DNA of 25,824 bases from a virus (taxonomy: Duplodnaviria; Caudoviricetes), in IMG/VR virus record IMGVR_UViG_3300025127_000234, positions 1-25,824 of that record; one strand, given 5' to 3'. The notes beneath the pieces are model-generated. The model saw only the letters and a program-made list of their open reading frames with translations, had not been told where the DNA came from and ran no database searches. Each line of letters begins with the position of its first letter. The stretch's first letter is position 1. Below are positions 2,510 through 25,822 of the stretch, piece by piece. The translations under genes were made by a program, and so were the position numbers.

Positions 2510-3475
2510 ATGTCAGTATTTGAAGGAAGAGAATATTACAAACCATTTGAATATCCGTGGGCGTTTAAAGCCTATGATGATCAACAAAAGATGCATTGGT
2601 TACCAAGTGAAGTTCCATTACATGAGGATGTAAACGATTGGAACTCTAAGATGAATGATGCAGAAAAGAATCTAGTAAAACAGATTCTAACATTTTTTAC
2701 ACAAGGTGATGTAGATATTGCACAAGCCTATATGGATGTGTATATACCCATGTTTAAAAAACCAGAGGTGCGCATGATGTTATCCGCTATCGCTACATCG
2801 GAGGCTAACCATGCACACAGTTACTCTTTATTAAATGATACAATAGGTATGGATGATAGAGAGTATAAAGCTTTCCAAGAATATAAAGAGATGGCTGACA
2901 AACATAACTACCTTTGGGAAAGTAAAGGGGGCACGGAAGAACAAAAGATCATAAGAGATATGGCTGTGTTCTCTGCATTTGGTGAAGGCTTGCAGTTGTT
3001 TGGTTCATTTATTATGCTACTAAACTTTCAAAGGTTTGGTAAGATGAAAGGCATGGGGCAGATAGTTGCATGGTCTATACGTGATGAGAATCATCATGTG
3101 GAAAATATGATTAAGTTATTACATACTGTATTAGATGAGAAACCTCACGTATGGAATGATAAGTTTAAGAAATCACTCTACGATATATGTAGGGATATGG
3201 TAACTCTTGAAGAGAAGTTCATAGACTTGGCGTTCGCACAAGGACCAGTCCAAGGACTTACACCACAAGAAGTAAAGAACTATATACACTACATGGCAGA
3301 CAGAAGATTACTCCAGCTAGGTTTAAAACCTAACTACGGAGTTAAAAACAATCCGCTTGAGTGGGTGGATTATATTGTCAATGGACAGGCACACGAAAAC
3401 TTCTTTGAGACTAGAGCGACTGAGTATGCAAAGGGAGCAGTTCAAGGAGATTGGAGTGATGCCTTTTCCTCTTGA
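2510..3475 (+). CDS. nrdB: class Ia ribonucleotide reductase beta subunit
   Basis: Di-metal ligands FFTQGD, EANH, EGLQLF and DENHH; radical Tyr in HAHSY; NFFE-x-R-x-x-EY tail. Real start is probably ATG 2510 after a GGAG SD, not TTG 2477. Confidence 0.96.
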   Translation: MSVFEGREYYKPFEYPWAFKAYDDQQKMHWLPSEVPLHEDVNDWNSKMNDAEKNLVKQILTFFTQGDVDIAQAYMDVYIPMFKKPEVRMMLSAIATSEANHAHSYSLLNDTIGMDDREYKAFQEYKEMADKHNYLWESKGGTEEQKIIRDMAVFSAFGEGLQLFGSFIMLLNFQRFGKMKGMGQIVAWSIRDENHHVENMIKLLHTVLDEKPHVWNDKFKKSLYDICRDMVTLEEKFIDLAFAQGPVQGLTPQEVKNYIHYMADRRLLQLGLKPNYGVKNNPLEWVDYIVNGQAHENFFETRATEYAKGAVQGDWSDAFSS

Positions 3476-3500
3476 CAAACCTTATATCATTTGATATAAT
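3472..3500 (+). promoter_or_regulatory. perfect-consensus sigma70 promoter overlapping the nrdB stop codon
   Basis: TTGACA (3472-3477), 17 bp spacer, TATAAT (3495-3500), extended -10 TG at 3492-3493. Confidence 0.9.
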
Positions 3501-3506
3501 AACACT

Positions 3507-3629
3507 AACAACGGAGACAGGGGGGCACAAAGAACCTTACTTCTTCTAGATGCAATATTTAGAAACAGTTTGGGGAACAACTTCCACAACCGTACAAAGG
3601 GCTGGTCTTAGGATTAGCCCTTTTCTTTT
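3507..3629 (+). ncRNA. candidate ~120-nt structured small RNA or attenuating leader
   Basis: Bounded by the consensus promoter and an intrinsic terminator; internal hairpins at 3544-3564 and 3568-3590; no SD-supported ORF. Confidence 0.55.
3596..3629 (+). terminator. intrinsic (Rho-independent) terminator
   Basis: Stem AAAGGGCTGGTC/GATTAGCCCTTT with two G-U pairs, loop TTAG, U-tract TTTTCTTTT. Confidence 0.8.
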
Positions 3630-3637
3630 GGAGACAC

Positions 3638-3838
3638 ATGAAAAATAAATTTAATTATCCACACACAACTAAATATGATAGGTTTGCAAAAAAGTTATAC
3701 CTGTTATTCAGCAATAAATCATTGACTTCTAAGTATAAGTTTGATAGACTCCCAATCAAAGACAAGGACTATTGGAGAGCCTTGGCTGAAATATCAACAA
3801 AGGAGAAACTATGGCAAACCCAACAACTTTCTCCGTAA
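3638..3838 (+). CDS. small basic hypothetical protein (66 aa)
   Basis: GGAG SD at 3630-3633, ATG start; no recognised family. Confidence 0.65.
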   Translation: MKNKFNYPHTTKYDRFAKKLYLLFSNKSLTSKYKFDRLPIKDKDYWRALAEISTKEKLWQTQQLSP

Positions 3839-4008
3839 CAGAATCATTTGTTAACAAGTGTTTAAACTTCTTTAGCAAAGACGAAACAAACGGAGACTCA
3901 TTAGAAGATTATTGCAGAGCTGAGTACAGAGAAGACTGGCAGTGGGCATTAAACTTTTATAAAAGAAACAACTCATTTCCAAGTGTTCATAAGATCATAG
4001 AGAAATAA
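3811..4008 (+). CDS. small hypothetical protein (65 aa)
   Basis: AAGGAG SD; the EDYCRAEYREDWQWA segment resembles small marine-phage proteins (from memory). Confidence 0.75.
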   Translation: MANPTTFSVTESFVNKCLNFFSKDETNGDSLEDYCRAEYREDWQWALNFYKRNNSFPSVHKIIEK

Positions 4009-4021
4009 TTGTAATCGGAAT

Positions 4022-4050
4022 AGGCTAGGCGTAAGCCTAGCTTTGTTCTT
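4022..4050. terminator. terminator hairpin at the junction of convergent operons
   Basis: GCTAGGC-GTAA-GCCTAGC (4024-4041, GNRA loop) followed by TTTGTTCTTT on +; contains the TAG stop of the minus-strand gene. Confidence 0.8.
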
Positions 4051-4675
4051 TGAATTTATAAAAGAAGTTAGTATCGTCACCTGCTGTCCATTTACTGACA
4101 GATTCCACATTATATTCTATAGTTGATACTTTAAAATCTGGTTGCTTTGGTTCTGCAGGAGTCAAAGATTTGTCATAAAACAATGTTCTATTGTTTGGTT
4201 GGGCAGCAAAGTGTCCGTTTTCTAATTCTAAAATATTAAATGACTTATGTTCCTCTGGAACTTGTGAGTAATTTATGTTGGGTAAATTATGATCAGCATG
4301 GCAACTATCTATTGTAAAAAGATATTCTCCATGATACCATTTCTTTGATGGCGATAAGTATTTTGCTCTAGGTGGTACAGTAATTTTTTCTATCACTGTT
4401 ATATGATAACTAAAAGCATCCCACAATTCTAGTTCTTCTAGGGGTAAATCTTCTTTAACATTGGGTGAACTAACGAAAGCACTAATTGGTAGCTTATCAT
4501 AGAGAGCGGCATACTCTGGTATATATGTTTCAAAATACAAAGCTCTGCCTTGTATAGATTTAACAGTAGTCCATATGCCTTCTACGTATTCTCCGTGCCC
4601 CCTTTCGAGGTCATAGAGATATTGTTTCTTAACCCAAACTTTTACAGGTGGTACGTTAGCTACTAGAAAAGACAT
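4037..4675 (-). CDS. conserved phage hypothetical protein (212 aa)
   Basis: Long ORF directly abutting the lysozyme stop; globular aromatic-rich sequence (ELWDAFSY, YLFTID, EHKSFN, AAQPNNR); no function recognised. Confidence 0.85.
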   Translation of the reverse strand: MSFLVANVPPVKVWVKKQYLYDLERGHGEYVEGIWTTVKSIQGRALYFETYIPEYAALYDKLPISAFVSSPNVKEDLPLEELELWDAFSYHITVIEKITVPPRAKYLSPSKKWYHGEYLFTIDSCHADHNLPNINYSQVPEEHKSFNILELENGHFAAQPNNRTLFYDKSLTPAEPKQPDFKVSTIEYNVESVSKWTAGDDTNFFYKFKEQS

Positions 4676-5122: not shown

Positions 5123-5155
5123 TAAAATCCTCCTATGCCCCAATGTTTATTATGT

Positions 5156-5452
5156 TCATCTTCGTCTTGCTTTTGTTTTCCTTTTTTGTGATTCAATAAA
5201 CTTTCTATATATAGCGGCAGGCTTACTCTTGCCAGCAACGCGAGCTCGCTGCTCCATTGCAATAGCTGCTTGAGTTTTATGAGCATGGCTTCTACCGCTT
5301 CCACGAATTTTAGACACGCTCTTTCTAGCCGATGCGGCATCTTTGAATCCAAGTCCTTTGATTGTACCTTTTGGGTTTTCGTCTGTGTATAAGTCTGAGT
5401 GTTTTTTTGAACCAACAGGTTGTCCTTTCTTTCTAGGTATTCTTGGAGCCAT
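5156..5452 (-). CDS. highly basic hypothetical protein (98 aa, MAPRIPRKKGQ...)
   Basis: ATG 5452 overlaps the end of the upstream gene; HSDLYTDENPKGTIKGLGF segment looks like a conserved core; the track's upstream extension lies inside another gene. Confidence 0.75.
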   Translation of the reverse strand: MAPRIPRKKGQPVGSKKHSDLYTDENPKGTIKGLGFKDAASARKSVSKIRGSGRSHAHKTQAAIAMEQRARVAGKSKPAAIYRKFIESQKRKTKARRR

Positions 5453-5840
5453 TCTTAGATAGTAATCCCATAGCGCCCTTAGCACCTTTAATACCAAAGC
5501 TTGCAGAACAAGCAATATATAATAAATGTTTGTAATAATCTGGTAAACTATGCAATGCTTCAAATCCTGCTTTGATGTGTGGTGTCCATCCAGGAATAAA
5601 TACTAGCACCGCTGGAATTAACAGGCATAGTAAAATTAGTTCGTCTTTCCAGCTCCCTTTCATTTGATCTACAGCGGAAGCTTCCCACGATATTTTACCT
5701 GCGATCTGTTGTTCTTTTAAACTTTTCTGTGCTTTTATTTCTGTCAAAGCTAAGTCAGCTTTTGCTTTCTTAGTCTCAACAAACCCCTTGACTGTATCTC
5801 CTATCAAAGATGTTAGAGGTCCTACTAATAGATTTAACAT
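5433..5840 (-). CDS. putative holin-like membrane protein
   Basis: Hydrophobic segments ELILLCLLIPAVLVFIP and LLYIACSASFGI after SWKDE; amphipathic N-terminus; located upstream of the endolysin. Confidence 0.6.
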   Translation of the reverse strand: MLNLLVGPLTSLIGDTVKGFVETKKAKADLALTEIKAQKSLKEQQIAGKISWEASAVDQMKGSWKDELILLCLLIPAVLVFIPGWTPHIKAGFEALHSLPDYYKHLLYIACSASFGIKGAKGAMGLLSKNGSKNT

Positions 5841-6100
5841 TATGATACCTTTCTAAATCTTTTTGTTTTCTTCTTTATATTCTTTGGTTGAGCCGCGTGT
5901 TGTTTACCAGCAGCTCTGGCTTTTCTTTTAGCTCTAGTAGTGGCAGCGTACTCAGCAGGTGACAAAGACTTTATAGCAGCAGAAGGTAGATATCTTTCTC
6001 CTGTAGCTTTAGGTCCTTGTGTCGATGGCTTTCCAGATTTGGTTCTCCATTTCTGTTTGGTCCATGACTTTAAACTTCTCTGCGATTTGGCAAGAGCCAT
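5840..6100 (-). CDS. basic protein resembling the C-terminal half of DUF5872-family proteins
   Basis: SQRSLKSWTKQKWRTKSG...ERYLPSAAIKSLSPAEYAATTRAK; TAATG coupling on both sides. Confidence 0.75.
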   Translation of the reverse strand: MALAKSQRSLKSWTKQKWRTKSGKPSTQGPKATGERYLPSAAIKSLSPAEYAATTRAKRKARAAGKQHAAQPKNIKKKTKRFRKVS

Positions 6101-6282
6101 TACTTTTTCTTTTTAGACTTCATGATCTTGTCTTGCAAGAACTTAGGTAAAGTCTTTTGAGCTCCAGTTAATTTACCTTTTGTACCATTACCATTCTTAA
6201 CTTCTTTCATTGGCTTCTGGTTCTTAGCTTTCTTAGACGGTCTACCTTTCTTACTTCCGTAAGTTCCTTTTCCCATTGGCAT
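6100..6282 (-). CDS. Lys-rich small protein (MPMGKGTYGSKKGRP...)
   Basis: Translationally coupled (TAATG) at both ends; very basic. Confidence 0.75.
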   Translation of the reverse strand: MPMGKGTYGSKKGRPSKKAKNQKPMKEVKNGNGTKGKLTGAQKTLPKFLQDKIMKSKKKK

Positions 6283-6374
6283 TATTTTTTCCCTTTCTTT
6301 TTCTTAGGTAATTTGCATTTACATTCTTTTATGTGAAATATTTTGCAAATAATTTTTTTAATAATACGAATCAT
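6282..6374 (-). CDS. 30-aa cationic Cys-containing peptide MIRIIKKIICKIFHIKECKCKLPKKKKGKK (not in ORF track)
   Basis: Hand translation; ATGA overlap upstream, TAATG overlap downstream, GGAGG SD; fills the gap exactly. Confidence 0.7.
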   Translation of the reverse strand: MIRIIKKIICKIFHIKECKCKLPKKKKGKK

Positions 6375-6547
6375 TTGTAACCTCCGCCTTTTGATTTGTA
6401 TTGTTTAGCTAGCATTTGAGCTTTACGAGCTGACCATTGTCCAGGAGCTCCGCCTTTTCCTCCAGCTTTGATCCTATTAAATAGTGCTTTACGCATACCA
6501 GGTTTTGTATAGTTACCTGCTTTATTAACTGTAGATTTTTTCTTCAT
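6371..6547 (-). CDS. 58-aa basic protein resembling the N-terminal half of DUF5872-family proteins (not in ORF track)
   Basis: Hand translation MKKKSTVNKAGNYTKPGMRKALFNRIKAGGKGGAPGQWSARKAQMLAKQYKSKGGGYK; ATGA overlaps at both ends. Confidence 0.85.
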   Translation of the reverse strand: MKKKSTVNKAGNYTKPGMRKALFNRIKAGGKGGAPGQWSARKAQMLAKQYKSKGGGYK

Positions 6548-6759
6548 GGTCTCTGTAGTTTTTTCTTTTTAACTTTTAAATCTTTTTGTATTCTAGATAA
6601 AGTAGGTGATGGTCTATTTAAGCTAGACATAAAAGATTTTTTCTTAGCTTGTTTAGACATTAACTTTTTAACACGCTTATCTACGTTAGGGTTTTTAGGC
6701 TTTCTCTTTCGAGAAGCGGGAGCTTTCTTCATCATTTGCTCCATTGCAGCTCTGTTCAT
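6544..6759 (-). CDS. Lys/Arg-rich small hypothetical protein (71 aa)
   Basis: ATGA-coupled to the next gene; very basic, low complexity. Confidence 0.7.
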   Translation of the reverse strand: MNRAAMEQMMKKAPASRKRKPKNPNVDKRVKKLMSKQAKKKSFMSSLNRPSPTLSRIQKDLKVKKKKLQRP

Positions 6760-6768
6760 GGTTTTTAT

Positions 6769-6873: not shown

Positions 6874-6879
6874 TAGATA

Positions 6880-6930: not shown

Positions 6931-6952
6931 ACCACAATTACAGGAGAACATC

Positions 6953-8191
6953 ATGGGTAAACCAATAGCAAAAAGCATATTAATTGATGCATTAAATGCA
7001 GTAATTAATAACAAGGGTAACAAAGCCGCAGCTTCTAGAGAGCTGGGTATACCACGCACAACATTACTAGAAAGAATAGAACAAGCACAACTACAAGGAG
7101 TTAAACCTACAGTCGTGCCCCCCGATGCTGAAGCGGCATTAATAGAACAACAGTATGAACACGATGCAGAAGTTCGTGAATTAAAAAAGAAAGTAGATGT
7201 ATTAGCTAGAGAAAACTTAGCGCATCAAAGATTAAAAGACAGTTTAATAAAAGCAGAAAAGCATGTAGCCAAGCCGCCAAAATGGCTGACTAAAAATACA
7301 AAAGCAAAAGGTGCACCAGGTGTGCCTACTATATTTTTATCTGACTTTCATTGGGGTGAAGTAGTAGATGAACAAGCTGTTAATGGTATTAATAAATATG
7401 ATAGAGATATAGCATTAAAAAGATTTAAGAACGTAGTAGAAACTACTATTGACTTATGTACTAATCACATGGTTAATCCTAGATATCCAGGAATAATCTG
7501 TGCTTTGGGTGGCGATATGATATCTGGTGATATACATGACGAGCTAGCAGAAAACAATGATGGCACTAATATAGAACATGTGTTGGATTTGCTAGATAAT
7601 ATGACATGGGCACTAGAAAGATTTGCTAAAGTTTTCGGTAAAGTATTTGTACCCTGTACCTATGGTAATCACTCCAGAACTTATAAGCAATATCGCCACA
7701 AACAAGCGGCAAAAACTAACTATGATTGGATGCTATACAATCTGTTAGCAAGACATTTTAAAAATGATAACCGTATACAGTTCCAAATACCTACAGGCTT
7801 TGATACAGTATATAAAGTCTATGGTATTAACTACTTACTGACACATGGAGATCGTCTCGGTGTGGCAGGGGGCACGGGAATTGTGGGTATGCTTGGTCCG
7901 ATAGCACGTGGTGTGCAGAAGATTAAACAAGAATACCATAATAGAAATAAGACTATTGATTACGTATTACTTGGGCACTACCACCAGTATATATCTCTAA
8001 AAGGTACTATTGTTAATGGATCTACTAAAGGATATGACGAGTATGCTTACTCAAATAGATTTACATCAGAGCGACCACAACAAGCACTATGGTTTACACA
8101 CCCAGAATACGGGGTGACATTCCAAGTTCCTGTAGTAGTTGATGAGCCTAAAGGATCTAAGTCTAAAGAGTGGGTTTCTTGGATGTGTTAA
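6953..8191 (+). CDS. Fis-like HTH + coiled coil + calcineurin-like metallophosphoesterase
   Basis: N-terminal GNKAAASRELGIPRTTLLERI (HTH); all five phosphoesterase motifs SDFH, GGDMISG, GNH, THGD, GHYH. Confidence 0.88.
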   Translation: MGKPIAKSILIDALNAVINNKGNKAAASRELGIPRTTLLERIEQAQLQGVKPTVVPPDAEAALIEQQYEHDAEVRELKKKVDVLARENLAHQRLKDSLIKAEKHVAKPPKWLTKNTKAKGAPGVPTIFLSDFHWGEVVDEQAVNGINKYDRDIALKRFKNVVETTIDLCTNHMVNPRYPGIICALGGDMISGDIHDELAENNDGTNIEHVLDLLDNMTWALERFAKVFGKVFVPCTYGNHSRTYKQYRHKQAAKTNYDWMLYNLLARHFKNDNRIQFQIPTGFDTVYKVYGINYLLTHGDRLGVAGGTGIVGMLGPIARGVQKIKQEYHNRNKTIDYVLLGHYHQYISLKGTIVNGSTKGYDEYAYSNRFTSERPQQALWFTHPEYGVTFQVPVVVDEPKGSKSKEWVSWMC

Positions 8192-11100
8192 TCTAATCCT
8201 AGTACCTCACGGTCTCGTAGGTTTCTAATAATTTGACCAGCGGGGTACTGTGTTAGTCTAAAGTTTCTAAATAAATCTTTCATGGCTTCATTCCTTAAAG
8301 CATCTACGTCTGGAAAAAAATTATAAGTTGGGTCCATTTTAGAATTAAATACAATTACTTTTTCTAGTGCTTCTTCTAGCTGATCGTTTCCTTTTTCTAT
8401 AAGATCTCTATCATTTGTCTCTGCGCCTACCATTATATTTCTAAAACCTTCAGTTATTAAATTGTTTATTCTGGTCCTAAACATTCTTGTTTCGCCACCA
8501 GTAAATTTTTCTAGGCGCAATGCTTCTCTTTCTTTTGATATTTTAGTAGGAGTAAAACCTATACTCTGCCATAATATATCTAAAGCGTTGAGATCATCAG
8601 TTAGCAAAGTGCCTGTAGATGAATACGCTCTTCCGTCTTTAGACATTTCAAAACCTTTGTAAATATTTTTTAAAAATGTAGGTAATAAGGCATCTATATA
8701 TGTAGAGAATTTAATACCACCTGTTTGAGTTAATTCTTGAAATAATTTTCTAGCATTGTCAATGAATATAGCACCTGGTGCACCAGTTATTGCACTTAAA
8801 TCTTGTGGCACTGGAGCTCCTAATACATTAAGAGCAGCTCTTGCTTGATCAGATCCTGGAAATCTAAATGCAATTCTTTTATTTATGTCCACATTTGCAA
8901 CAGCATTTATCAATCCGTTCTCAGCTGCTTCGATTAAAAATTCAGGTGTGCCTAAATCATCAAGCATTACTCTGAAATCTTGTCTTAAATCTTTGTCTAC
9001 TCCTGTATATATTTTTCTAACTAAATCAAATAAAAATGCACCATCTTCTCCACCAGGTAAACCAAAGAAACCAGCAGATAAGAATATAGCTAACATCATT
9101 CTGCCAAATATTTTTTGCCCTGTGTATTTTCTATTCTTATTACCTGCAGTCAACATTCTTAAAAAGACACCCATCATCTGACTGATATATGTTTGAAATA
9201 AAAACACAGGAGCGCCAAGACTTCTCATTATTTTAGGTTTATTTATTTTGTTATATAAACCAAATGTCTCTTCAGTTAATTCTTCTGCAATAATTCTAGG
9301 AGTAACCACACCACCGTTGGCTGCAACAGCTGCTCTAAATAGTGCATTGTTTTCCATTAAAAATTCTGTAGCATTTTTTCTAAATGTAGGATCTTGAGCT
9401 AATCTATGAATAGCTAAGAATGCAGTAGATCTAGCAAAAGTTTCGAAAGTTTGGAAAGCTCCACCGATTATTGTATTTTCTACAGTTCTAAATTTAGATC
9501 TTAAACTATTTCTTGTTCTAATATTTAAAGTTCCAGATGGCATACCTGCTTCTCTAACAGCTGAGCCTTGTTTTATAACACCATTAAAAACAGCTGCTAA
9601 AAAATCATCAGCTTGATCTTCAGGAAGATTTTCTCTTCTTATATCTAGGAATAAATCTTGATAAGATCTATTTTTACCGCTTAACATTTTACTTGTAATA
9701 GCAAATGCTCTTGCTAATTCTTTTTTGGTTTGTACTTCCCCTCCAAATTGTGCTATATAAGGACCTGTTATTTGAAGAAGACTTAGTAACTGTAAAAATG
9801 CTGAAGATAAATTACCTCCTAAGTACCACCAGAATCCTAATCTTCTTAAATTTGCAAACTCTTGTTCTGGGTCACTAGTATAATCATACCACTGTTGGTA
9901 AGCTCTTCTTTTAGCTGCATTAGGTTCTTTAGCTGGATCTGTTACTTCTTTTAGAAGCCTATTAGAAGAAGTATTGTATCTATTAGCTGCGGCAGCTTGC
10001 GCAGCTGCTTGTGCATATTGTGTTAAAGCTCTACCAAAATCATTACTAAATCCAGGAACACCACCTATTTCTCTTCTAGGTTTAAAGTAAAAAGAATAGC
10101 CTCTAATATTTCTTCCTACTTTTTTATTTATTATACTATCTAATTCTTTCCGTACTTCTAAATAAGCATTGACATTTACATCTGACAAATGTTGAGCTAC
10201 AGAATCTAGACTATCAAAATCATCTCCCACCATTTTTCTTAATTCTGCTATACTAACTTCTTGTGCGTTTGATATAACAAAATTACCAGAGCCATACTTC
10301 TTTTCAAGCTCTGCTCTTACTTCTGGCTCTTCGTCTAAAAAACTAGTTCCAAATTTTCCTTTATTAAATTGTCTGTAGTCTACTAAATCTCCAGACTGTT
10401 TCTCTTTTACTGTAATATAAAAATTTCCGTACCTTTGTAATGGAACATAATCATTCTTTTTAAAATCTTCAAATTGTTTTAAGTCAGCTACTAGCGCAGA
10501 TAGCCCAGAGCCTTGTGGATTTGTTTTAGTTCCTCTAGTAGTTCCTACTATAGGAGGTACTACTTTAGTTAACACTTCATCTCTACCTGTGTCTGGTTGT
10601 AGTATAGTATCAGATTCTTTTAACTTTTCTAAAATATAACTAAGTTGACGATAAGTTAAATTCTCTTGTTCTTCAACAGGCATATTAAAATCTACTATAC
10701 CATTGTTTGCTAAGTCTGGTCTGTAATCTCTTAATATTCTTAATCCATTTGTTATTACATCTCTAGTATTTTCATCAGCAAGTAAACCTTTGACCACTTC
10801 ACCATGTAATACTGCTAGAGCTTTTTGTACATCTTCATAAGCACGTGCTGCATTGCCTCTAAGAACAACAGTTTCTCCTGCTTTTACTGTGCTACCAGCG
10901 GCTCTTCCATTTTCTTGTGCTACAAAAACTATTTCACCGTTTTCATTTGCCCTGAATATACCAGGAGATCTTTTAGTTATTATTGGCTCGCCTGTCTCTG
11001 GATTTACTGATCTTTGTGATATAGGTTGTTGCGATATTTCTAAAGCTTTTATTAAAGCGTCACGAACTTCTGGGTCACCCATTGCTGGTATAAAATAATC

Positions 11101-14100
11101 TTGTAATATAGAAGTAAACTCTGTAACTATTTCTGTTTGCTTACGATCTTTTGCTCTGACATTTTCAAATAAAAATTCAAAGCCACCACCAGCAATAGCC
11201 CAGTTTCTAGGATGTCCAAATATTTTAGAACGTGTGCTCCACTTCTCTAAACTTTGGGTGCCCCCTTTATCAAACATACCTTTGACTTGATTTATCTTGT
11301 TATTAAATTGAGCAAAGTCTCTTCTTTGTTGTTCTCTTGTAGGAGGTTCTTGTCCTTGTTCTAGTGGAGGATCACTAGGATCAGGAGTAAATGATCGTGA
11401 TTCTAATATATTAGGAATAGTGGAATCATAATTGCCATTGTTGTATACGCTCTTTAATTGTGTAGGTTTAAATACTATGTAAGAATCAAATAAATATTTA
11501 TCAAATAATTCTAGGTCTCTTTCAAATTCATTCCTATAAACAATACCATCGTAACCTTTATTTTGTATTTCATTAATTAATATTTTGTACTGCTGTCTAA
11601 CAGTTTTATTTTCCATAGCTTTTAATATTCTACGTTGTTCTGCTTTTGTAAATATAGGTTTGTAAACTGTATTGGGTGGTGCTTCTCTTTCACTACGTAT
11701 TTTAACAGAGGCAGGGTTTTGTACTATTTGAAACTTATTAGGATCTCCTGTTAAAGTTTCTAAAACAACATTAGGTAGCCAATTACCTAGATCTGGCATA
11801 CGTAAAGGATTTTGTATAGACACCATAACAGGATATACTTGTGCATTTTTTAAATACTCAGCTTGTTTATCTACAGATATATCAACTGGAAAACTAGGAG
11901 TTCTATCTTTTAAATTTCTTATTATACTATTAGCTTGTCCTGCAGTACCTACGTGAGCTCCCAGATCTACAGTGTTGCCTATGAATGGTATTTGTTTTGT
12001 TGTGCCATGAAATGCTACTAATGGGGCATTTGCTCTATCAATATCAGCTGTAGATAATACTGAAGCTCTGATTAAATCAAATTGATTTTTAAAAGACCCA
12101 GGTGAAAGATTATCTGTTATACTATATTTAAAAAGAAAATTCTTAGGTCCTATTAATAAATCTAATATAGCATTTTGAGCGGGTGTATTTAAATATGTAT
12201 CTAAAAATGTTTCAGTAAAAGTTATTATGTCTGCAATTCTTCTATCTTCTGTAATATATTTATCTATCATACCATGATTTTTATTTGCAAACTTAGATAA
12301 TTTATCTATAAGAAAAACATACTGCGTTATTTCTTCTTGAGTTGGTATACCTTCTGGGCGACCATTGCCTGTTAATAAATCTAATGCCTTAACTATATTA
12401 AGTAAATAAGTTCTAATTAGTACATCGTTTTCTTCTGATATTTTTTCTTCTGCTCCTATGAAAGGTATATTATCTGATGATTTTTCTATACCTTGTCCTT
12501 TTCTAAAAGATACAGGTATAGCATTATATAATTGTTCTAGTCTATCTAGATCGGCATTGTCTACCTCATATAGTGCACTAAGACGCTGATCTTCATTAAT
12601 ATAAATTAAAGTATCTTGCCCACCCTCTATTAAATTTTGCGCTACTTGACCATATGTATTAAGATCCATTTTACTTAACGACTGTAAAACTATTCTTCGC
12701 ACATCAGCATATTCATCACTACCAAAAATACTTATTGAACTTTCAGATATTACTTTTTCAGATTCTTCTTTTAATATCTGTTTTTTCTTTTCTTCAGTTA
12801 AAATTTTACCAGCGTCTTCAGAAAAGATACTAAAAGTAAGAGGTATCTCTTCACCTACTTTTAAAGAATCTTCTAATTCATCTAACTCTTCTTTAGTTTT
12901 ATATCTAACAGTGGTGCCTTCTGGTCTTTCACGCCCAAACTTTTCTTTGTATAATCTATCTTGCTCTTCTTTAGATAATATGGTACGAACTATCTCCCCT
13001 TTTTCTTTTCCTTTTTTAGATACTTGTCTATCAGGCGTAGGGAATTTAATTATGTCTGCAGTTTTTTTTATTTCTGGGAACTGATTTTTTATACTAGGTT
13101 CTAATCTATTTTTTATAAGTAAGTTAGCATTAGCATTATTAGTTCCTTGTCCTGTAATTTTTATAGCATTATGCGTGCCCCCTTTAACCACAGAGTTTTT
13201 AAACCATGCTTGGAAGTTACTTCTATTTAAAAGAGTAGATTGTTCTATATTTAAATCTTTAGTCTTTTGTAACTCTTTATCTTTTCTATCTAAAAATTTC
13301 TTACGGATTATACCTAAATCAGCTTCTTCAAATATATCATGTACACTCTGATAATTTCTATTTAGTAAAATATTACCAATGCCTCTTAATATGTTTTCTA
13401 TAATATCAAATATCTTTTTAATAATACCACGTGGTTGATATTGATTAGCTTTGTATTGAGCAAACCTATCTGATATTGCTTCTAATTGTTGTACAAAACG
13501 GGGGGCACCCGCATATCTTTGTTCTATTTTAAACTCTTTTATCCATGATTTTTCTGCAGCGTCTAGTAATCTTTTTTGTTGTTCAGGTGAAAGCATGGTA
13601 AATATAGCATGCATTGCTTCGTGATGTAATGTATACAGTCTAGGGTCTTGATTTATTCCAATAATTGATGGATCTGCCATATTATTTTTAGCTATAAATA
13701 TAGCTACTTCAGCGTCTCTTGTTGCCAAGTCAACTAAATTATAGTTACCAATAAACTGGAAGAAACCATTACCAGGAAAACCATCTGCTCCTTTTATCTC
13801 ATCTACAAATTTTAAATCTACATTGGGTCCAACAGTACGTAAAAGATAAGATCTGAAATCTGCTTCCATAGATGGCAGGTCATCATATACTGAGTCTTTT
13901 AATTTAGGTGGTTTAGGTGTGATGTTATTAAACTTGTTCCAAAACTTGTAATATCTTTTCTCTCTTATTATCTTTTTCTGCCCAAGGATTTTGTTTTTAA
14001 CATCTTTAGGTATAGATTTTAAATTGTTAAAATCTTCATCGGTTAAAGTATCCATGCCTAAAGTAATTAGTAATTCATTAACATAGACTTTAGCTTCTTC

Positions 14101-16539
14101 TATACTTTGTATCTTACCTTCTAAAGCTTTTATTTCTCTTGCTTTTTCTTGAGGTGTTAAAAAAGTAGATCTATTTATCTTGGCAATCTCATCTTTAAAC
14201 TTTTGTATTCTACTATTAAAAGTAGATGCAGGTCCTAAGTCTTGATACTTTCCATTAATTATATTTTGCAAAGCTCTTAGTCTATCTCTTGGTCTGGTAG
14301 ATTTTAAAAGTTTGTAGGCTTTTATCTTATTTATTTCTTTAGGATCTGTAGCATCTTTTAATGCTTGATCAAGTTCTGCTGTAGTATACCTGTCTATTAT
14401 ACCTAAACTTATGCCAGTTTTTCTTAATTCATCAGCTGTTAAAGGTTCGGATATTATTTCTTCTCCTATCTTTTCCATTTGTTCAAATGTAAAAGGTTTA
14501 AATTTTATCTTATTGTTAATAATATTTTCTAATTGTAATCTTCCGTTAGTCTTTGATTTAGCATCTTTAGAATTTACATCGTTTAATAATCTTTGTATAA
14601 ATCTTCTACCGTTTTCTCCTTTAAAATATCCTAGAGAATTTAATGTGTCGTTTTCTTTAGTGCTTAATTCATTTAGATTATCAGAAGCTATATCAGCTAC
14701 ATCTTGTCTGTATACTGCTTCATCATTATTACCTTTAATACCTTTTAAGTCATACCCTCTGCTTTTTAATTTTCTTTCATTAGCTTGATGAGTCTTAGTA
14801 TTTATTAAAGGTCTGTTTTTAATTTCTTCATCTGATTCAGTAAACTCATCTATTGGTTTTTCTTCTGGGGTTTTTACTTCGGGAGTTTGCACAGCAGGAC
14901 CTGCTAATGCAGCACCAGGTGCATTCTTTTTTACAGCATCTTGAAAAGTCATACCTTGTTTCATATCTCTAGCAATACCTTCTGCTTGTTCTGGCGATAC
15001 TCCTACTAAACCTGTAGGAATTCTGCTAGCTTTTGGAGGTGGAGATTCTGGGGCTTGTGTTTGCTCTTTGAGTTCTTCTTTTGTAGGTTCTATTGGATCA
15101 ATTACTAAAGATATGTTAGGTCTATCTGAAACAGGAATAATTTGCTGTGCTCCTCCCTGTGTGCTATTTAAAACATAAAAATCTTCACCATTCATATTAA
15201 CAATACCTGTAACAATAAACTCAGGAGTTACTGCATCGCCTTGTTTGTTTTTTACTAACTCACCATTCTTATCATAGATAGCTTGAATGTTAGATACGTT
15301 TACTCTTTTTCCTGCTATGTCATCAATGTCTTTTCCTTGCACTCTAAAAGTAGCATTGCTTATTGACCCCTTAAAATCTTTATCTCTATCGCTAGGACTT
15401 ATAATGTATTTGTATGTACCACCTGCAGCTCCGAAGGGGGCACCGCCAAATGCACCCATAGCACCTGCGTTAAGAACTGTTTTGTAAAACTCTGGATCAT
15501 TTACTTGCTCTTGTAAAGCTCCTGTAATATCGCCATCACGTTTTCCTTTTTCTAATGTACCTGCTGTTTCTACTAAAGATTCTTGGATAGTTTCTGCTCC
15601 AGCTTCTCTAGCCATTGTAGCTGCTACGTCTTTTGTAAACTTTCCTAAAGTATATTTACCTACACCCTCTTTTGTAGATTTACCTATTATTTTTTCAAAC
15701 CTAACTGGTGCACCTAGTGCTATTTCAGCTGCTGTATATAAAGGAGCTAACGCCATAGTGACACGTAAGTCAGGATCATCCGTTACTTCTAATTGTCCTT
15801 CTGTTATATCAGCACCTGCCATTGCTGTTAAGTATGCTCGGCTAGCATATTTGCCAAACTTGTTGCCTAATTGTGTTGCTCTTATAGAAGCCATTGGTCC
15901 ACCAAAAAGACCTATGGCTCCTCCTATAACAGGGGGAGCGTATCTTAAAAAAAGAAATGGTATGGATGTAGCAAATGCGTTACCCATAGAACCTGCTGCA
16001 AAATCTGTAAAGTGTTGAAGTTTACTTTCGCTATTTAATATGTTGAATATATTTAGGTCATACTCTTCTAGCTGACCCTCTTCATTTAAAAAGAATCTCT
16101 CTGCATCTGCTTTTAATTGATATTGCCTAGTAACAGTTTGCCACTTCTGTTGCATTTCTTCATTGTCTATTGCATCTCCTATGATACTCATTATATTAGA
16201 AGGAATTCTTTTTACAAAGTTAGCACCACTTTTAAATTGTTTAGTAAAAGCACCATCGTCTAGACTCTCAAGTGGTATGGCTTCTGCGTCTAATCCAGGA
16301 ACAAATAAGTATCCTTTATCAAACATATCATTGATAAATTGATCAGAGTTAATTACTTCTTGTATTTTATCTTTAGACATATCCTTTGGAACAATCATAG
16401 TTGGTCCATTAGGATCAGCTGATAGTGCTAGTTTAATTGAGTTTTCGGGAGAAGTTGTAGATGTAGGACTTACATTAAGATTTTGTAAAGACTCTAATAA
16501 TTCTGTTCTAGATGGTCGTAAGTTTATTTCTGTTGCCAT
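8188..16539 (-). CDS. giant polyvalent (probably internal virion/ejected) protein with zincin metallopeptidase, ADP-ribosyltransferase and PLxRFG domains
   Basis: HEAMH...EAISDRF (13623-13609); PLVAFHGT...GAHVGT...YDGIVY...SYIVFKPTQLKS (about 12030-11400); YVPLQRYG (10443-10426); last gene of the virion module. Confidence 0.8.
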   Translation of the reverse strand: MATEINLRPSRTELLESLQNLNVSPTSTTSPENSIKLALSADPNGPTMIVPKDMSKDKIQEVINSDQFINDMFDKGYLFVPGLDAEAIPLESLDDGAFTKQFKSGANFVKRIPSNIMSIIGDAIDNEEMQQKWQTVTRQYQLKADAERFFLNEEGQLEEYDLNIFNILNSESKLQHFTDFAAGSMGNAFATSIPFLFLRYAPPVIGGAIGLFGGPMASIRATQLGNKFGKYASRAYLTAMAGADITEGQLEVTDDPDLRVTMALAPLYTAAEIALGAPVRFEKIIGKSTKEGVGKYTLGKFTKDVAATMAREAGAETIQESLVETAGTLEKGKRDGDITGALQEQVNDPEFYKTVLNAGAMGAFGGAPFGAAGGTYKYIISPSDRDKDFKGSISNATFRVQGKDIDDIAGKRVNVSNIQAIYDKNGELVKNKQGDAVTPEFIVTGIVNMNGEDFYVLNSTQGGAQQIIPVSDRPNISLVIDPIEPTKEELKEQTQAPESPPPKASRIPTGLVGVSPEQAEGIARDMKQGMTFQDAVKKNAPGAALAGPAVQTPEVKTPEEKPIDEFTESDEEIKNRPLINTKTHQANERKLKSRGYDLKGIKGNNDEAVYRQDVADIASDNLNELSTKENDTLNSLGYFKGENGRRFIQRLLNDVNSKDAKSKTNGRLQLENIINNKIKFKPFTFEQMEKIGEEIISEPLTADELRKTGISLGIIDRYTTAELDQALKDATDPKEINKIKAYKLLKSTRPRDRLRALQNIINGKYQDLGPASTFNSRIQKFKDEIAKINRSTFLTPQEKAREIKALEGKIQSIEEAKVYVNELLITLGMDTLTDEDFNNLKSIPKDVKNKILGQKKIIREKRYYKFWNKFNNITPKPPKLKDSVYDDLPSMEADFRSYLLRTVGPNVDLKFVDEIKGADGFPGNGFFQFIGNYNLVDLATRDAEVAIFIAKNNMADPSIIGINQDPRLYTLHHEAMHAIFTMLSPEQQKRLLDAAEKSWIKEFKIEQRYAGAPRFVQQLEAISDRFAQYKANQYQPRGIIKKIFDIIENILRGIGNILLNRNYQSVHDIFEEADLGIIRKKFLDRKDKELQKTKDLNIEQSTLLNRSNFQAWFKNSVVKGGTHNAIKITGQGTNNANANLLIKNRLEPSIKNQFPEIKKTADIIKFPTPDRQVSKKGKEKGEIVRTILSKEEQDRLYKEKFGRERPEGTTVRYKTKEELDELEDSLKVGEEIPLTFSIFSEDAGKILTEEKKKQILKEESEKVISESSISIFGSDEYADVRRIVLQSLSKMDLNTYGQVAQNLIEGGQDTLIYINEDQRLSALYEVDNADLDRLEQLYNAIPVSFRKGQGIEKSSDNIPFIGAEEKISEENDVLIRTYLLNIVKALDLLTGNGRPEGIPTQEEITQYVFLIDKLSKFANKNHGMIDKYITEDRRIADIITFTETFLDTYLNTPAQNAILDLLIGPKNFLFKYSITDNLSPGSFKNQFDLIRASVLSTADIDRANAPLVAFHGTTKQIPFIGNTVDLGAHVGTAGQANSIIRNLKDRTPSFPVDISVDKQAEYLKNAQVYPVMVSIQNPLRMPDLGNWLPNVVLETLTGDPNKFQIVQNPASVKIRSEREAPPNTVYKPIFTKAEQRRILKAMENKTVRQQYKILINEIQNKGYDGIVYRNEFERDLELFDKYLFDSYIVFKPTQLKSVYNNGNYDSTIPNILESRSFTPDPSDPPLEQGQEPPTREQQRRDFAQFNNKINQVKGMFDKGGTQSLEKWSTRSKIFGHPRNWAIAGGGFEFLFENVRAKDRKQTEIVTEFTSILQDYFIPAMGDPEVRDALIKALEISQQPISQRSVNPETGEPIITKRSPGIFRANENGEIVFVAQENGRAAGSTVKAGETVVLRGNAARAYEDVQKALAVLHGEVVKGLLADENTRDVITNGLRILRDYRPDLANNGIVDFNMPVEEQENLTYRQLSYILEKLKESDTILQPDTGRDEVLTKVVPPIVGTTRGTKTNPQGSGLSALVADLKQFEDFKKNDYVPLQRYGNFYITVKEKQSGDLVDYRQFNKGKFGTSFLDEEPEVRAELEKKYGSGNFVISNAQEVSIAELRKMVGDDFDSLDSVAQHLSDVNVNAYLEVRKELDSIINKKVGRNIRGYSFYFKPRREIGGVPGFSNDFGRALTQYAQAAAQAAAANRYNTSSNRLLKEVTDPAKEPNAAKRRAYQQWYDYTSDPEQEFANLRRLGFWWYLGGNLSSAFLQLLSLLQITGPYIAQFGGEVQTKKELARAFAITSKMLSGKNRSYQDLFLDIRRENLPEDQADDFLAAVFNGVIKQGSAVREAGMPSGTLNIRTRNSLRSKFRTVENTIIGGAFQTFETFARSTAFLAIHRLAQDPTFRKNATEFLMENNALFRAAVAANGGVVTPRIIAEELTEETFGLYNKINKPKIMRSLGAPVFLFQTYISQMMGVFLRMLTAGNKNRKYTGQKIFGRMMLAIFLSAGFFGLPGGEDGAFLFDLVRKIYTGVDKDLRQDFRVMLDDLGTPEFLIEAAENGLINAVANVDINKRIAFRFPGSDQARAALNVLGAPVPQDLSAITGAPGAIFIDNARKLFQELTQTGGIKFSTYIDALLPTFLKNIYKGFEMSKDGRAYSSTGTLLTDDLNALDILWQSIGFTPTKISKEREALRLEKFTGGETRMFRTRINNLITEGFRNIMVGAETNDRDLIEKGNDQLEEALEKVIVFNSKMDPTYNFFPDVDALRNEAMKDLFRNFRLTQYPAGQIIRNLRDREVLGLD

Positions 16540-17854: not shown

Positions 17855-18747
17855 TAGCTAAAAAATCCTGTTATATCTCCCCATGTTAATCCTAAGTTAC
17901 CTGCTGCTCCCAATGCGCCTATACCAGCACCAGCTATTTGTCCAAACAAACTAGGTTGTTGAGGAGCTGGACCCATTGTAGTAGTCATTGATCCTGTTGG
18001 AACACCACGTAATATATCAGAGTAGAATCCGAGTTGTTGTTTCGGAAAGTCTCTTTCTTGTACAAATTGATTGTACCCTAAATCTAACACTGCTTGATCC
18101 ATACCTCTTTGTAATCCACCAATACCTAGTTGTCTATTTATATCGGATGATTCTAATGCATCTGCAGTTGCAGCAGTTTGCGCCATACCTAACCCTGAAG
18201 CTAACTGTGTTTTTCTATCTTGTTGTGCTGCTTTTAAAGCCGTGTCAAAAGCTCTAGCTTGTGCCTGTGTATAAATATCACCAAGACCTTGTTGTAAATT
18301 TCTTTGACGTTCTGCTTCTACTATGTCTGCTCTTGATCCACCAAATGCACCAGCTTGTGCAGCTTGTGCTTGATTAGCTACTTGTTGCATTTCAGATCTT
18401 CGTGTTAATTCTCTGGCTGCAATATCTGCTACGTTTGTCATATATGGATTCATATATGTTGATATGTCAGCGGCTGCTGGCATTCCTGCGGCTGTCGCAG
18501 CTGTAAATGCTTGTGCCCCTCTGAGACCACCAAGACCTCTGCCTTGTTGAGCCTGTGCCATAGCTTGTTGTTCTAGATCAGAAAAGCCTGCAAGTCTAGG
18601 TCCTGTGTACGGTATAAAATTTTCTTTTGCTACATCACCTGCAGTTGCTACTAAAGATTCAGCAGCTCTTTCCATATACTCAGGAAGTTGTACCTGACTT
18701 GTAGAAGTTTGTTGTGCCTGTTTAGTTCCAAATAAAAAATCTAACAT
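17854..18747 (-). CDS. putative DNA ejection/pilot protein
   Basis: Ala/Gln/Gly-rich; YMNPY, AGAFGGSR and a C-terminal Gly-rich hydrophobic segment typical of podovirus ejection proteins. Confidence 0.7.
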   Translation of the reverse strand: MLDFLFGTKQAQQTSTSQVQLPEYMERAAESLVATAGDVAKENFIPYTGPRLAGFSDLEQQAMAQAQQGRGLGGLRGAQAFTAATAAGMPAAADISTYMNPYMTNVADIAARELTRRSEMQQVANQAQAAQAGAFGGSRADIVEAERQRNLQQGLGDIYTQAQARAFDTALKAAQQDRKTQLASGLGMAQTAATADALESSDINRQLGIGGLQRGMDQAVLDLGYNQFVQERDFPKQQLGFYSDILRGVPTGSMTTTMGPAPQQPSLFGQIAGAGIGALGAAGNLGLTWGDITGFFS

Positions 18748-20039: not shown

Positions 20040-20045
20040 CTAAAT

Positions 20046-20074: not shown

Positions 20075-20091
20075 GGGGGGCACGGGCAAAT

Positions 20092-22474: not shown

Positions 22475-22490
22475 TTGCCGTGCCCCCTTC

Positions 22491-23607: not shown

Positions 23608-24152
23608 TATGCTAATATCTCCGTAGCCATACCAATTGAAACCTCTGCATCACTATAACCACCAGTATTTGCTGGCATATTTAAAGTCCATGCCCCAGAA
23701 TTAGTTTTTATTTGTAAATCATATTGAGTAGCAGAAGTTGTATTAGGCGAGTCTAAATATACTAAAGGCTGTGGTTGTGTGTAATAAGCCGACTGACTAT
23801 CAGCAGGCCATCTAGTAACTATGAATGGATCTGATTGAACATCTGATCCAGCAGTATTATTTCTAATTTTTAACATAACATTAGCAGATGATGTATTACA
23901 ACCAACACGAGGAGTAAACATCAGTAATACTTTACTAGTAGCTGCACTAGGAGTAATAGTTACAGAATAAATAGTTACATAACTAGTAGAACTTGATGTT
24001 TCTGTATTTGATTTAATTGTTTGCACTACTTGTCCTACTTTACCAACAGGAGGGAAAGCTGTACCAAGAGTTACACTACCTGAACCATTAGACGTGATAA
24101 GATTATTATCACCTGAGTCATTAATTAAATTTACTTTTAGTTTACTGGTCAT
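23607..24152 (-). CDS. tail fibre-associated protein
   Basis: MTSKLKVN N-terminus; GKVGQVVQT, ITPSAATSKVL, LDSPNTTSATQY motifs. Confidence 0.65.
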   Translation of the reverse strand: MTSKLKVNLINDSGDNNLITSNGSGSVTLGTAFPPVGKVGQVVQTIKSNTETSSSTSYVTIYSVTITPSAATSKVLLMFTPRVGCNTSSANVMLKIRNNTAGSDVQSDPFIVTRWPADSQSAYYTQPQPLVYLDSPNTTSATQYDLQIKTNSGAWTLNMPANTGGYSDAEVSIGMATEILA

Positions 24153-24701
24153 CTATACTCCTACTAACTTGTACGCTCCAAAATATGTAGGTGAAGCACT
24201 AGAGGCTCCATAAATACTTGGTGTTCCAGAACCTACATTTGCTTTTACATACATCTCCACATAATCAGTGGTGTTAAAATCAACAATCATACTAATAGCT
24301 TGTATAATTTGGTTACTTTTAGCGTTAGAATTATTACTAGGGTCGATTGCATTTCTAGCTAATTCAGAGCCATTTTTATAAAGAATAATAGCTCCATATT
24401 GATATTCTTCTCCATTACTATTACTTGCATTGACTTGACCATAAACAAGATACTTACCTGCCACTGTTGGTGTAAATCTATAGTTTGTGCTATTATCGTA
24501 CTTACTATCAGTGTCAAATAATTCAGTATCAAAATCTATTTTTGTATCGGTGCCACTTGAAATATTTGTACTTGAACTCTTGGTAGCATGAAAGGCGGGA
24601 ACGCTAGTAAAAGGTCCAGATACAGTATCCCCTGTCTCACCAATCGTAATTGATGAGCCTGACTGCTTTATAATCTCATTTACCTTTAACTGTGATGCCA
24701 C
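24153..24701 (-). CDS. tail fibre-associated protein with C1q/TNF-like domain
   Basis: GTG start with GGAG SD; PAFHA...IDFDTELFD...YRFTPTVAGKY...DYVEMY...YFGAYKL. Confidence 0.75.
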   Translation of the reverse strand: MASQLKVNEIIKQSGSSITIGETGDTVSGPFTSVPAFHATKSSSTNISSGTDTKIDFDTELFDTDSKYDNSTNYRFTPTVAGKYLVYGQVNASNSNGEEYQYGAIILYKNGSELARNAIDPSNNSNAKSNQIIQAISMIVDFNTTDYVEMYVKANVGSGTPSIYGASSASPTYFGAYKLVGV

Positions 24702-24711
24702 TTATTACTCC

Positions 24712-25041
24712 TTATGATTTAGGGTTTGCGTCTTTAATAGCTTTGATTCTAGCTTTCCATGCATCTATATCTTTATAGATTTCATCTAGCTGATCACCAA
24801 TATCACCGTAAGCTGCTCTACGTGTAGATCTGACTACATTGTTTGCCTCTTCAGTATTACCTGCTGTTTCGTATGTAGCAAGTTGATCATCTGTTGGTTT
24901 ATCAAGTCCTGAAACATTCCATTCTTTTATGTAAGGACCCTTACCATCAGAATCATCCTGAAGTAAAACGTCTTTTGTAAAATCCACAGTCTTTGAGTTA
25001 GCCTCACAATAAAGTTTTATCTTTGTTGATAACTGTGCCAC
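24712..25041 (-). CDS. XkdW-like tail-associated protein/chaperone
   Basis: LQDDSDGKGPYIKEWN...KPT and RRAAYGDIGDQLDEIY...IKDANPK; GTG start with GGAG SD. Confidence 0.65.
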   Translation of the reverse strand: MAQLSTKIKLYCEANSKTVDFTKDVLLQDDSDGKGPYIKEWNVSGLDKPTDDQLATYETAGNTEEANNVVRSTRRAAYGDIGDQLDEIYKDIDAWKARIKAIKDANPKS

Positions 25042-25050
25042 TGTTTACTC

Positions 25051-25419
25051 CTATCCGCTAAAGTCTGCGTATTCCACAACCTTAGCACGTTCTGCTGCTC
25101 TTTTTGTTTTTACATCAGAAGGCATAGCAGTTCCGCCCTCTGCCTCTCTGATTGAATACCAATCAGTAGATGCAAGATAAGCTCTTGCAGTTTCGTTGAT
25201 TACTTTTTGATCAGCAAACTTGTCTTGTTTGTCCATGTCGGCTTTGACTTTTGCCCAAGTAACAGCATCTGGCTTAGAGCCAAAAATAGCTGTACCGTTA
25301 GAGTCAGCGCCAGATACCCACTTAACTTGCGAATTAAACTCCGCTTCAGTAGAGGGGGCACCAGTTATGACAAACTCGTATGTACCGATCGATTGTATTG
25401 CTTGTGCACAATCTGCCAT
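25051..25419 (-). CDS. tail fibre assembly chaperone-like protein
   Basis: ARAYLASTDWY...KRAAER motif; AGGAG SD. Confidence 0.65.
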   Translation of the reverse strand: MADCAQAIQSIGTYEFVITGAPSTEAEFNSQVKWVSGADSNGTAIFGSKPDAVTWAKVKADMDKQDKFADQKVINETARAYLASTDWYSIREAEGGTAMPSDVKTKRAAERAKVVEYADFSG

Positions 25420-25429
25420 TGTTTACTCC

Positions 25430-25822
25430 TTATAATATCACTAGTGTTCCACCACTAGCTACGGTTATTGTTTGTCCTGAGGACACTGTTATAGGACCCA
25501 CTATACTAGCATTTTCAGATGCTGCAATAGAGAGCCCCCCTGTCAAAGTTTGTACGTTTCGATACGCGCCTTGAATACTTGTTAGTTTCGCAGCAGTAAC
25601 TGTTGCGTCACTTGGAGTACCTATGTCTAAAGTATCTCCGAATATCTGACCTGAAAACGTAGCACCGTTTGCAGGTGGTCCTGTAAATGCTATTGTACCA
25701 GATGTTGAGCCCGCTGTAAAGGCTGTTCCTGGTACTTGATAGACACCATTTATATGAATCATTAGCGATGCTAGTGAACCTATTGTTTGTGTGGTGCCCC
25801 CTACAGCTATAGTAAACTGTGT
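25430..25822 (-). CDS. 5'-truncated tail fibre/baseplate-repeat protein
   Basis: Frame stays open to the window edge (TQFTIAVGGTTQTIGSLASLMIHINGVYQVPG...); INGVYQ-x-P...IAFTGPP repeat unit; GPITVSSGQTITV tail. Confidence 0.7.
   Translation of the reverse strand, partial: TQFTIAVGGTTQTIGSLASLMIHINGVYQVPGTAFTAGSTSGTIAFTGPPANGATFSGQIFGDTLDIGTPSDATVTAAKLTSIQGAYRNVQTLTGGLSIAASENASIVGPITVSSGQTITVASGGTLVIL

Follow-up and report, generated by a model that had tools for sequence, protein, structure and literature searches.

The primase of phage T7, gp4, recognises 5'-(G/T)2GTC-3' sites, which are dispersed on both strands and serve lagging-strand starts. pRN1 ORF904 recognises GTG, and the Chi sites of RecBCD and AddAB are G-rich asymmetric octamers. 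The NrS-1 polymerase, which belongs to the AEP enzymes, recognises an 8-nt site, 5'-TTTGGTTA-3', and 5'-GTGG/GTG-3' (PMC8718748). CCPol-MP, found in SCCmec, is an A-family polymerase which primes de novo beside a helicase, at a preferred site (PMC7581432). Helicases of the DUF3987 family are related to MCM and generally occur together with AEP or DnaG primases, but phage 119X has been named as lacking a primase, with possible non-canonical priming (PMC4889955); one DUF3987 protein has been demonstrated to be a helicase (PMC11724360). Here we describe a GC-rich octamer, GGGGGCAC, dispersed in a virus genome of the Caudoviricetes (Duplodnaviria) and in the genomes of its relatives, and weigh its possible role as a priming site. 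The DNA analysed, hereafter the window, measures 25,824 nt (35.4% GC) and comes from IMG/VR record IMGVR_UViG_3300025127_000234, a single contig.

The exact word occurs 13 times in the window, 7 times on the plus and 6 times on the minus strand, as counted in the first-pass annotation of this DNA and confirmed by a recount over the same span. An order-2 Markov model predicts 0.056 copies, in agreement with the earlier estimate of less than 0.1, and the GGGGGCAC family is the top family of 7-, 8- and 9-mers in the window. Other runs of five G or C residues are three only, at 4824, 15932 and 25535, as previously noted. Ten copies are coding (one, at 25794, in a tail ORF (open reading frame) open at the 5' end) and three intergenic; 8 are sense and 5 antisense to transcription, and various frames are used, all as first described. 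Across relatives, copies make use of every one of the six frames and also lie between genes. Codons at the copies had been called unexpected, and codon counts bear this out: GGG accounts for 35 of 597 Gly codons, CCC for 23 of 355 Pro codons, and ACG for 18 of 558 Thr codons. In 5000 synonymous-codon shuffles, a control suggested by the same annotation, at most 3 copies were obtained, and the 9 copies present in the ORFs called for the shuffle test were never reached.

These data bear on the view that the word arose as a by-product, whether from biased codon pairs, from avoidance of restriction sites or from errors of assembly. Avoidance is a fact in G001, a near-complete relative (60.6 kb) with proteins 94–98% identical to those of the window, from which GGCC and CCGG are entirely missing (0 vs 93 and 0 vs 78 expected). 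Use of all six frames and of gaps, the choice of rare codons and the silent sites kept in many independent contigs refute the by-product view, and an assembly artefact is excluded because GGGGGCAC recurs in independent contigs. The avoided sites themselves differ between relatives, as G004 completely lacks CCGG and GGWCC, which points to different host restriction systems.

Comparisons of orthologues indicate that the word is under purifying selection at silent positions, far above background. The background is the retention of G/C-ending fourfold degenerate third positions, 33% at 75–90% amino-acid identity and 36% at 50–75%; the orthologues counted are related, and counts are not independent events. 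The site in nrdB (2927..2934, plus strand; codons GGG GGC ACG) is kept in 20/20 orthologues at 75–90% identity, against 33%, and in 27/33 at at least 90% identity, and the losses displayed are recodings of the whole word, all or none. The site in the gene of a 212-aa protein (4595..4602, minus strand; codons AGG GGG CAC) is kept in 19/20 orthologues at 50–75% identity, against 36%, and the antisense site in a 122-aa tail gene (25354..25361, plus strand; G-A-P) in 5/5 orthologues. Two sites reside in the gene of a helix-turn-helix (HTH) phosphoesterase. The antisense one (7115..7122, minus strand; V-P-P) is kept in 18/18 orthologues at 75–90% and 0/34 at 50–75% identity, the sense one (7868..7875, plus strand; G-G-T) in 14/18 and 1/34, respectively. 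At 50–75% identity HTH-gene sites are often relaxed at the last base, as the 7115 site, which often changes to GGGGGCAT, and other sites appear. Selection at the DNA level, as first proposed, is supported by the codon shuffles, the silent-site retention and the enrichment in the clade reported below; conservation at synonymous positions in relatives, on which the proposal was to be judged, is far above background.

The word is a mark of one clade of uncultured, AT-rich phages. It was found in 29/29 loci encoding stabilisation proteins 52–100% identical, while 43/48 loci at 31–42% identity lack it and 5/48 have one copy. Whole records G001 to G009 contain 9–27 copies on both strands, against 0–1 copies of the reversed control; G010 has none. 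Plus- and minus-strand copies number 11+13, 7+8, 16+11, 6+7 and 8+6 in G001 to G005, respectively. Enrichment was assessed for a set of five words (GGGGGCAN plus AGGGGCAC) in loci of at least 8 kb with distinct PolA sequences: the set is enriched at p<1e-3 in 71/72 PolA loci of the clade (p=1.0e-3 in the 72nd) and in 0/15 outgroup records. No copies were found in HTVC027P and DSL-LC04 (first 50 kb of each) nor in HTVC019P. The word can thus be predicted neither from the structural module by itself nor from the replication module by itself, because these three phages, and outgroup phages carrying the replication module, are without it. No paper on GGGGGCAC as a phage signal, or on this clade, was found by title in the open-licence literature, and text searches within PMC9069017, PMC12918982 and PMC9599517 brought up nothing on the subject.

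The HTH-phosphoesterase gene follows the same pattern, as the octamer is present in 66/66 loci in which this protein is 54–100% identical, and in 0/14 at 43–50%. The first-pass annotation had listed the HTH-phosphoesterase among candidate binders of the word, an option weakened by the 14/14 word-free loci encoding homologues. The same loci speak against the word marking localized nicks of the virion genome, of the kind found in phages tf, T5 and phiKMV, with the HTH-phosphoesterase as a possible cutter. The genome of tf features 14 dispersed 9-nt sites (PMC3517423), the stabilisation protein of the window is distantly related to that of tf, and the HTH-phosphoesterase is core to the clade; yet tf sites lie on one strand and are unevenly distributed (same source), whereas copies here are balanced between strands (7+6 in the window). 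Nicking is, on the whole, distinctly improbable.

The strictness of the word drifts with the phage lineage. GGGGGCAC is found in the window, G001 and G003, RGGGGCAC in G002, and G004 and G005 also feature GGGGGCAN. Flanks were analyzed in 143 site clusters of the clade. Purines run 5' of the word, at frequencies of 0.84, 0.81 and 0.67 at positions -1, -2 and -3, and a C-poor stretch is found 3' of it. The extended consensus first drawn, in which the word is followed by G or C and then by A-rich DNA, holds only in part: 12/13 copies in the window have G or C after CAC, but this preference is weak clade-wide, the residue after CAC being G in 0.34, C in 0.20, A in 0.27 and T in 0.18 of the site clusters. 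Oriented diversity around the sites showed no asymmetry; in G001 conservation is confined to the word and does not extend to its flanks.

Copies are evenly spaced along each strand. In spacing tests records were treated as circular, G003 and G007 being about 85% complete, and the genomes are related. The coefficient of variation (CV) of per-strand spacing of RGGGGCAC is 0.51 in G001, 0.48 in G003 and 0.59 in G002, against about 0.9 for random placement. The CV is also lower than when orientations are shuffled over fixed positions, with p values of 0.029, 0.0013 and 0.034 for RGGGGCAC in the same three genomes, and of 0.019 and 0.044 for the strict 8-mer in G004 and G005, respectively. Combined over seven genomes by the Fisher method, p is 1.7e-4 for RGGGGCAC, and ranges from 1e-4 to 5e-4 over all four motif definitions used; with the combined definition, seven out of seven genomes converge on 3.1–4.6 kb between sites per strand. 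None of 300 control 7-mers is as even as the word in G001, the genome covered by this control. In an unbiased scan of enriched 5- to 8-mers, the word or a substring of it ranks first for evenness in 6/6 clade genomes, and no comparably enriched and even word was found in 16 other genomes, 12 of which have the same replication module. Per-strand evenness exceeds pooled evenness, and points to a directional single-strand process. Such a word, non-palindromic, regular on each strand and tuned by lineage, is what would suit an enzyme that works directionally along a single strand.

Strand-dependent evenness is not needed by a protein that simply binds duplex DNA, and this weighs on the hypothesis that the word is an operator- or stoperator-like site for a transcription or genome-organising protein, such as the HTH protein, a 95-aa protein or the ejected protein. 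Three copies are intergenic: one after nrdB (3521..3528, plus strand), in a context matched in G001 and G003, one at 20076..20083 (plus strand), with equivalents in G001, G002 and G005, and one at 22480..22487 (minus strand), which precedes the stabilisation protein's start codon by 5 nt and may double as a ribosome-binding site. These copies, and several small clade-specific proteins without annotation, would suit such a regulator, but the word is not a palindrome, resides mostly mid-gene, and lacks the fixed orientation to transcription which characterises mycobacteriophage stoperators (8 sense and 5 antisense copies in the window, both orientations in G001 to G005). A regulatory site is very improbable.

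A Chi-like signal would stop or redirect a helicase-nuclease degrading DNA ends and promote recombination. The actors would be host AddAB or RecBCD, or the PD-(D/E)XK nuclease of the phage with Sak4, and both orientations would guard against breaks anywhere. A non-palindromic G-rich 8-mer, present on both strands and even on each, would suit this hypothesis, and the phage does encode a PD-(D/E)XK nuclease and a Sak4-like protein. Against it, in 301 genomes of the class of G017 (labelled Alphaproteobacteria) the density reaches at most about 170 per Mb (control, 76 per Mb), and none comes near the about 500 per Mb of the window, in a sample where the SAR11 probe matched 0/301, two genomes are unpublished, and the phage's host is not identified. 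Moreover, two Pelagibacter phages (HTVC027P, first 50 kb, and HTVC019P) have 0 copies, and strictness tracks the phage lineage. We regard a Chi-like role as unlikely. Among the many-copy genomes of the class, the largest ratio was found in G078 (2.1 Mb), where GGGGGCAC occurs 137 times and its reversed control 21 times.

The replication genes offer a candidate reader. The window begins with the C-terminal 229 aa of a DUF3987 (MCM-like) helicase (3..692, plus strand), 98% identical to residues 190–418 of the G001 helicase. This is the last gene of the candidate reader module; the genes for its UDG-exonuclease and PolA, as seen in G001, are located ahead of the window. The G001 replication block includes a PD-(D/E)XK nuclease, a Sak4-like AAA_24 protein (annealase), a 145-aa unannotated protein, putatively a single-strand DNA-binding protein, a UDG plus 3'-5' exonuclease, the 95-aa protein, DUF3310, PolA and the DUF3987 helicase. 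The UDG-exonuclease, a split PolA and the helicase are encoded by five near-complete relatives. PHROGs labels 3..692 as 'DNA primase', yet no primase domain is found in the gene. Prim-Pol (PF09250), DnaG_N (PF08275), Toprim_2 (PF13155) and DNA_primase_S (PF01896) were found in none of 5 relatives which are 92–100% complete; all four were detected in control genomes (PF08275 and PF13155 in 10 and 14 of 14, respectively), and highly diverged forms could escape. PHROGs identified no primase domain in 75 of the 77 ORFs of G005 (the terminase and the stabilisation protein were left out), and the sole 'primase' label in that scan sits on the DUF3987 helicase. A primase recognition site was among the options of the first-pass annotation. 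Per-strand evenness favours the priming part of it; the 'phage primase' is the DUF3987 helicase, devoid of a primase domain, and the five near-complete relatives provide no substitute from known primase families.

PolA and the helicase both feature insertions. A PolA fingers insert of about 40 aa, predicted to be a folded alpha/beta subdomain (pLDDT 88–95), was identified in 19/19 clade and 0/6 outgroup sequences. It is absent from Caulobacter phage Kuura too, and not scorable in PaP2, Tiera and EBPR3 at 25% identity. Foldseek matched the whole PolA to Taq/Bst-type polymerases only. The selectivity position of PolA motif B is His in clade and outgroup (G001:C1:25934-27493, L162:5934-7493), and Phe in Taq; no passage on this His was found in the PolA papers searched. 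The 95-aa protein has a confident predicted fold, unmatched in fold searches (Foldseek E>1; best VIA Z 4.6). A weak match of this protein to the helix-bundle primase domain of ORF904 (E 0.14) vanished with a deeper alignment, and the assignment found no support. A 266-aa protein without annotation has no Atlas match, and is not core to the clade.

The helicase insertion was identified in 4/4 clade and 0/6 outgroup sequences, and suits a hypothesis in which copies are loading sites for the DUF3987 helicase: by recognising the word in double-stranded DNA, the enzyme would start many origins inside the genome, host DnaG providing primers. A C-terminal winged helix occurs in DUF3987 proteins (PMC4889955), and the related Cch2 binds a specific double-stranded site (PMC7581432). 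In G002, G003 and G005, distances are shorter within back-to-back than within head-to-head pairs of sites (7-mer Fisher p 4e-4), but the asymmetry is absent in the window, G001 and G004, and runs the other way in G007 and G009 (8-mer Fisher p 0.11); being mixed across genomes, back-to-back pairing was given little weight. The known self-loading helicases described in PMC7581432 use clustered iterons at one origin, unlike isolated words spaced a few kb apart. Helicase loading is, in our opinion, quite unlikely.

We favour the hypothesis that the phage replisome recognises the copies as priming sites for the lagging strand, and assign to it a probability of roughly 0.5. Lagging-strand priming is the simplest reading because the genome has no recognisable primase and the recombination set could start forks either way. 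Forks would run both ways across the genome through recombination-dependent starts, and sites would consequently be required on both strands. Primers start with purines, and on the G strand purines are in excess on either side of the word; the template is therefore probably the C-rich strand, 5'-GTGCCCCCYY-3'. At a genomic GC content of 35%, a primer made on the GC-rich tract would be stable. The reader would be PolA, via the fingers insert and perhaps together with the helicase, as in CCPol-MP/Cch2; this is the least certain step. Template strand, primer and reader are, that is, what we infer. The narrower proposal, that in an abundant clade without any primase PolA, with its fingers subdomain, and the MCM-like helicase read the 8-nt word, present at intervals of a few kb on both strands, and start DNA de novo, is tentative and unlikely.

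Several observations weigh against the priming hypothesis. Twelve outgroup phages with the same PolA and DUF3987 module carry no comparable word, and hence possession of the module is not enough to predict one. The match between insert and word is a single evolutionary event, confounded with every other trait of the clade; PolA and helicase insertions are one event each, and prove nothing on binding; the reader is a candidate only. Chi-like sites would also be even on each strand. For Okazaki priming, one 8-nt site per 3–5 kb is a low density, unless weaker sites also come into play, and host DnaG could supply primers, making the word unnecessary. Orientation-specific evenness of RGGGGCAC is not significant in G004 to G007 (p 0.11–0.30), and four motif definitions were tried on related genomes.

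The remaining copies, and one variant, reside in genes of ejected and tail proteins. Four are found in the gene of a 2783-aa ejected, polyvalent protein (8188-16539, minus strand): two sense sites at 11258..11265 and 13175..13182 (minus strand), the latter back-to-back with the antisense site at 13501..13508 (plus strand; G-A-P), and a second antisense site at 15436..15443 (plus strand; G-A-P), all with the exact word, as at 22480. This protein has an ART-PolyVal match, and is 38% identical to its G001 counterpart, in contrast to about 95% for its neighbours. The largest gap between exact copies is filled by the variant AGGGGCAC, located in a DNA ejection protein gene at 18513..18520 (minus strand; position derived from gap lengths). 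The site in the 5'-open tail fibre ORF (25794..25801, minus strand; G-G-T) has an equivalent coding site at G001:53618. The Rfam scan of the window identified no family.

Genes of the window encode NrdA and NrdB, a lysozyme, the HTH-phosphoesterase, the ejected protein and tail proteins. NrdA is closest to those of Pelagibacter phages (61–65% identity), and the stabilisation protein is 33–38% identical to those of DSL-LC04, HTVC027P, HTVC023P and CRP-901. In G001, HTVC027P-like capsid (60%) and portal (38%) are joined to a different replication block. Neither a host nor a provirus emerged from an NrdA-based scan of GTDB contigs. Within the clade, one ribonucleotide reductase has been swapped for another: NrdA and NrdB are found in the window (741-3475) and in G001 to G003, and NrdA in G007, whereas G005 encodes a single reductase of 637 aa which is different (G005:C1:118-2028), and G004 and G006 have no NrdA match. 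A cluster of very basic small ORFs (5156-6759, minus strand), at least two of which have homologues in 6/7 clade genomes, possibly encodes DNA-condensing core proteins. Amidoligase, class II glutamine amidotransferase and gamma-glutamyl cyclotransferase genes (G001:C1:14690-20492) are core to the clade.

Words of other phages were considered as analogues. TTGGGAC of Desulfofustis phage LS06 (L183) was rejected, being half of an intergenic palindrome of about 23 bp, present in about nine intergenic copies (e.g. 249-263, 15474-15488, 29970-29984), and probably an operator. The word of EBPR podovirus 3 (L182), a NotI-containing 20-mer near broken genes (9398, 9436, 13813, 29050, 29093, 38969), was discarded as it looks like a linker artefact. 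GCGGCA of HTVC019P was set aside, as by eye it corresponds apparently to Ala-Ala codon pairs for the most part. GTCCCTC of Kuura (L178), the phage with the closest cultured PolA, occurs in 27 sense-strand copies vs 4.5 expected, 25/27 in one frame, and has 5/7 bases in common with GTGCCCC; not clearly enriched in 5 Kuura-level relatives, it is a weak lead.

Priming of 119X-type phages without primase is stated as an open point in PMC4889955. The clade offers a defined word as candidate template, together with the variants found in its lineages, and four or five candidate proteins. If the narrower PolA proposal is true, the word would reveal a third, sequence-programmed priming route in phages, and the primase-less 119X-type case would become testable; a PolA which primes at a fixed octamer would also be of use for amplifying DNA without added primers. 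Should the priming hypothesis fail, the word is still a strand-specific, genome-wide signal, strongly selected at silent sites, of a phage group that is common.

Compared with known systems, the word shares features with several. Nick sites of tf/LUZ24-like phages, T5 and phiKMV-like phages are also short, dispersed (about 14 per genome) and private to a group, but tf/LUZ24-like sites lie unevenly on one strand (PMC3517423), whereas the word is even on both. Chi is likewise a G-rich asymmetric octamer, useful to a phage in both orientations, but no host enrichment was seen in the 301 sampled genomes, a sample in which SAR11 is not shown, the host of the phage not being identified. T7 gp4 sites resemble the word in their dispersal on both strands, the GC-rich primer-coding tract and the lagging-strand role, proposed here for the word; the word is longer, much rarer and strongly enriched, and no Toprim primase is encoded. 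The sites of AEP primase-polymerases are short and non-palindromic too, the C-rich strand here begins with 5'-GTG, and NrS-1 sets a precedent for the 8-nt length (PMC8718748); clade phages have no AEP catalytic domain, the fold of the 95-aa protein is unmatched, and sites are here even on both strands. The word falls outside the Toprim and AEP site kinds because neither enzyme is encoded. It is non-palindromic, strand-specific and evenly spaced on each template strand, as priming sites in general. In 119X and PaP2 of Pseudomonas, and Kuura of Caulobacter, the same PolA and DUF3987 gene set is found with no primase detected (PMC4889955), but the clade proteins are only 22–40% identical to their homologues, none of 12 such phages has a comparable word, and Kuura lacks the PolA insert. 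As with CCPol-MP and Cch2, an A-family polymerase lies beside an MCM-related helicase without a separate, conventional primase (PMC7581432); the clade PolA differs from CCPol in having a separate UDG-exonuclease subunit, the motif B His and the fingers insert, and there is one origin site in that system (same source), dozens here. By our reading, the word is akin to primase recognition sites in the way it would work.

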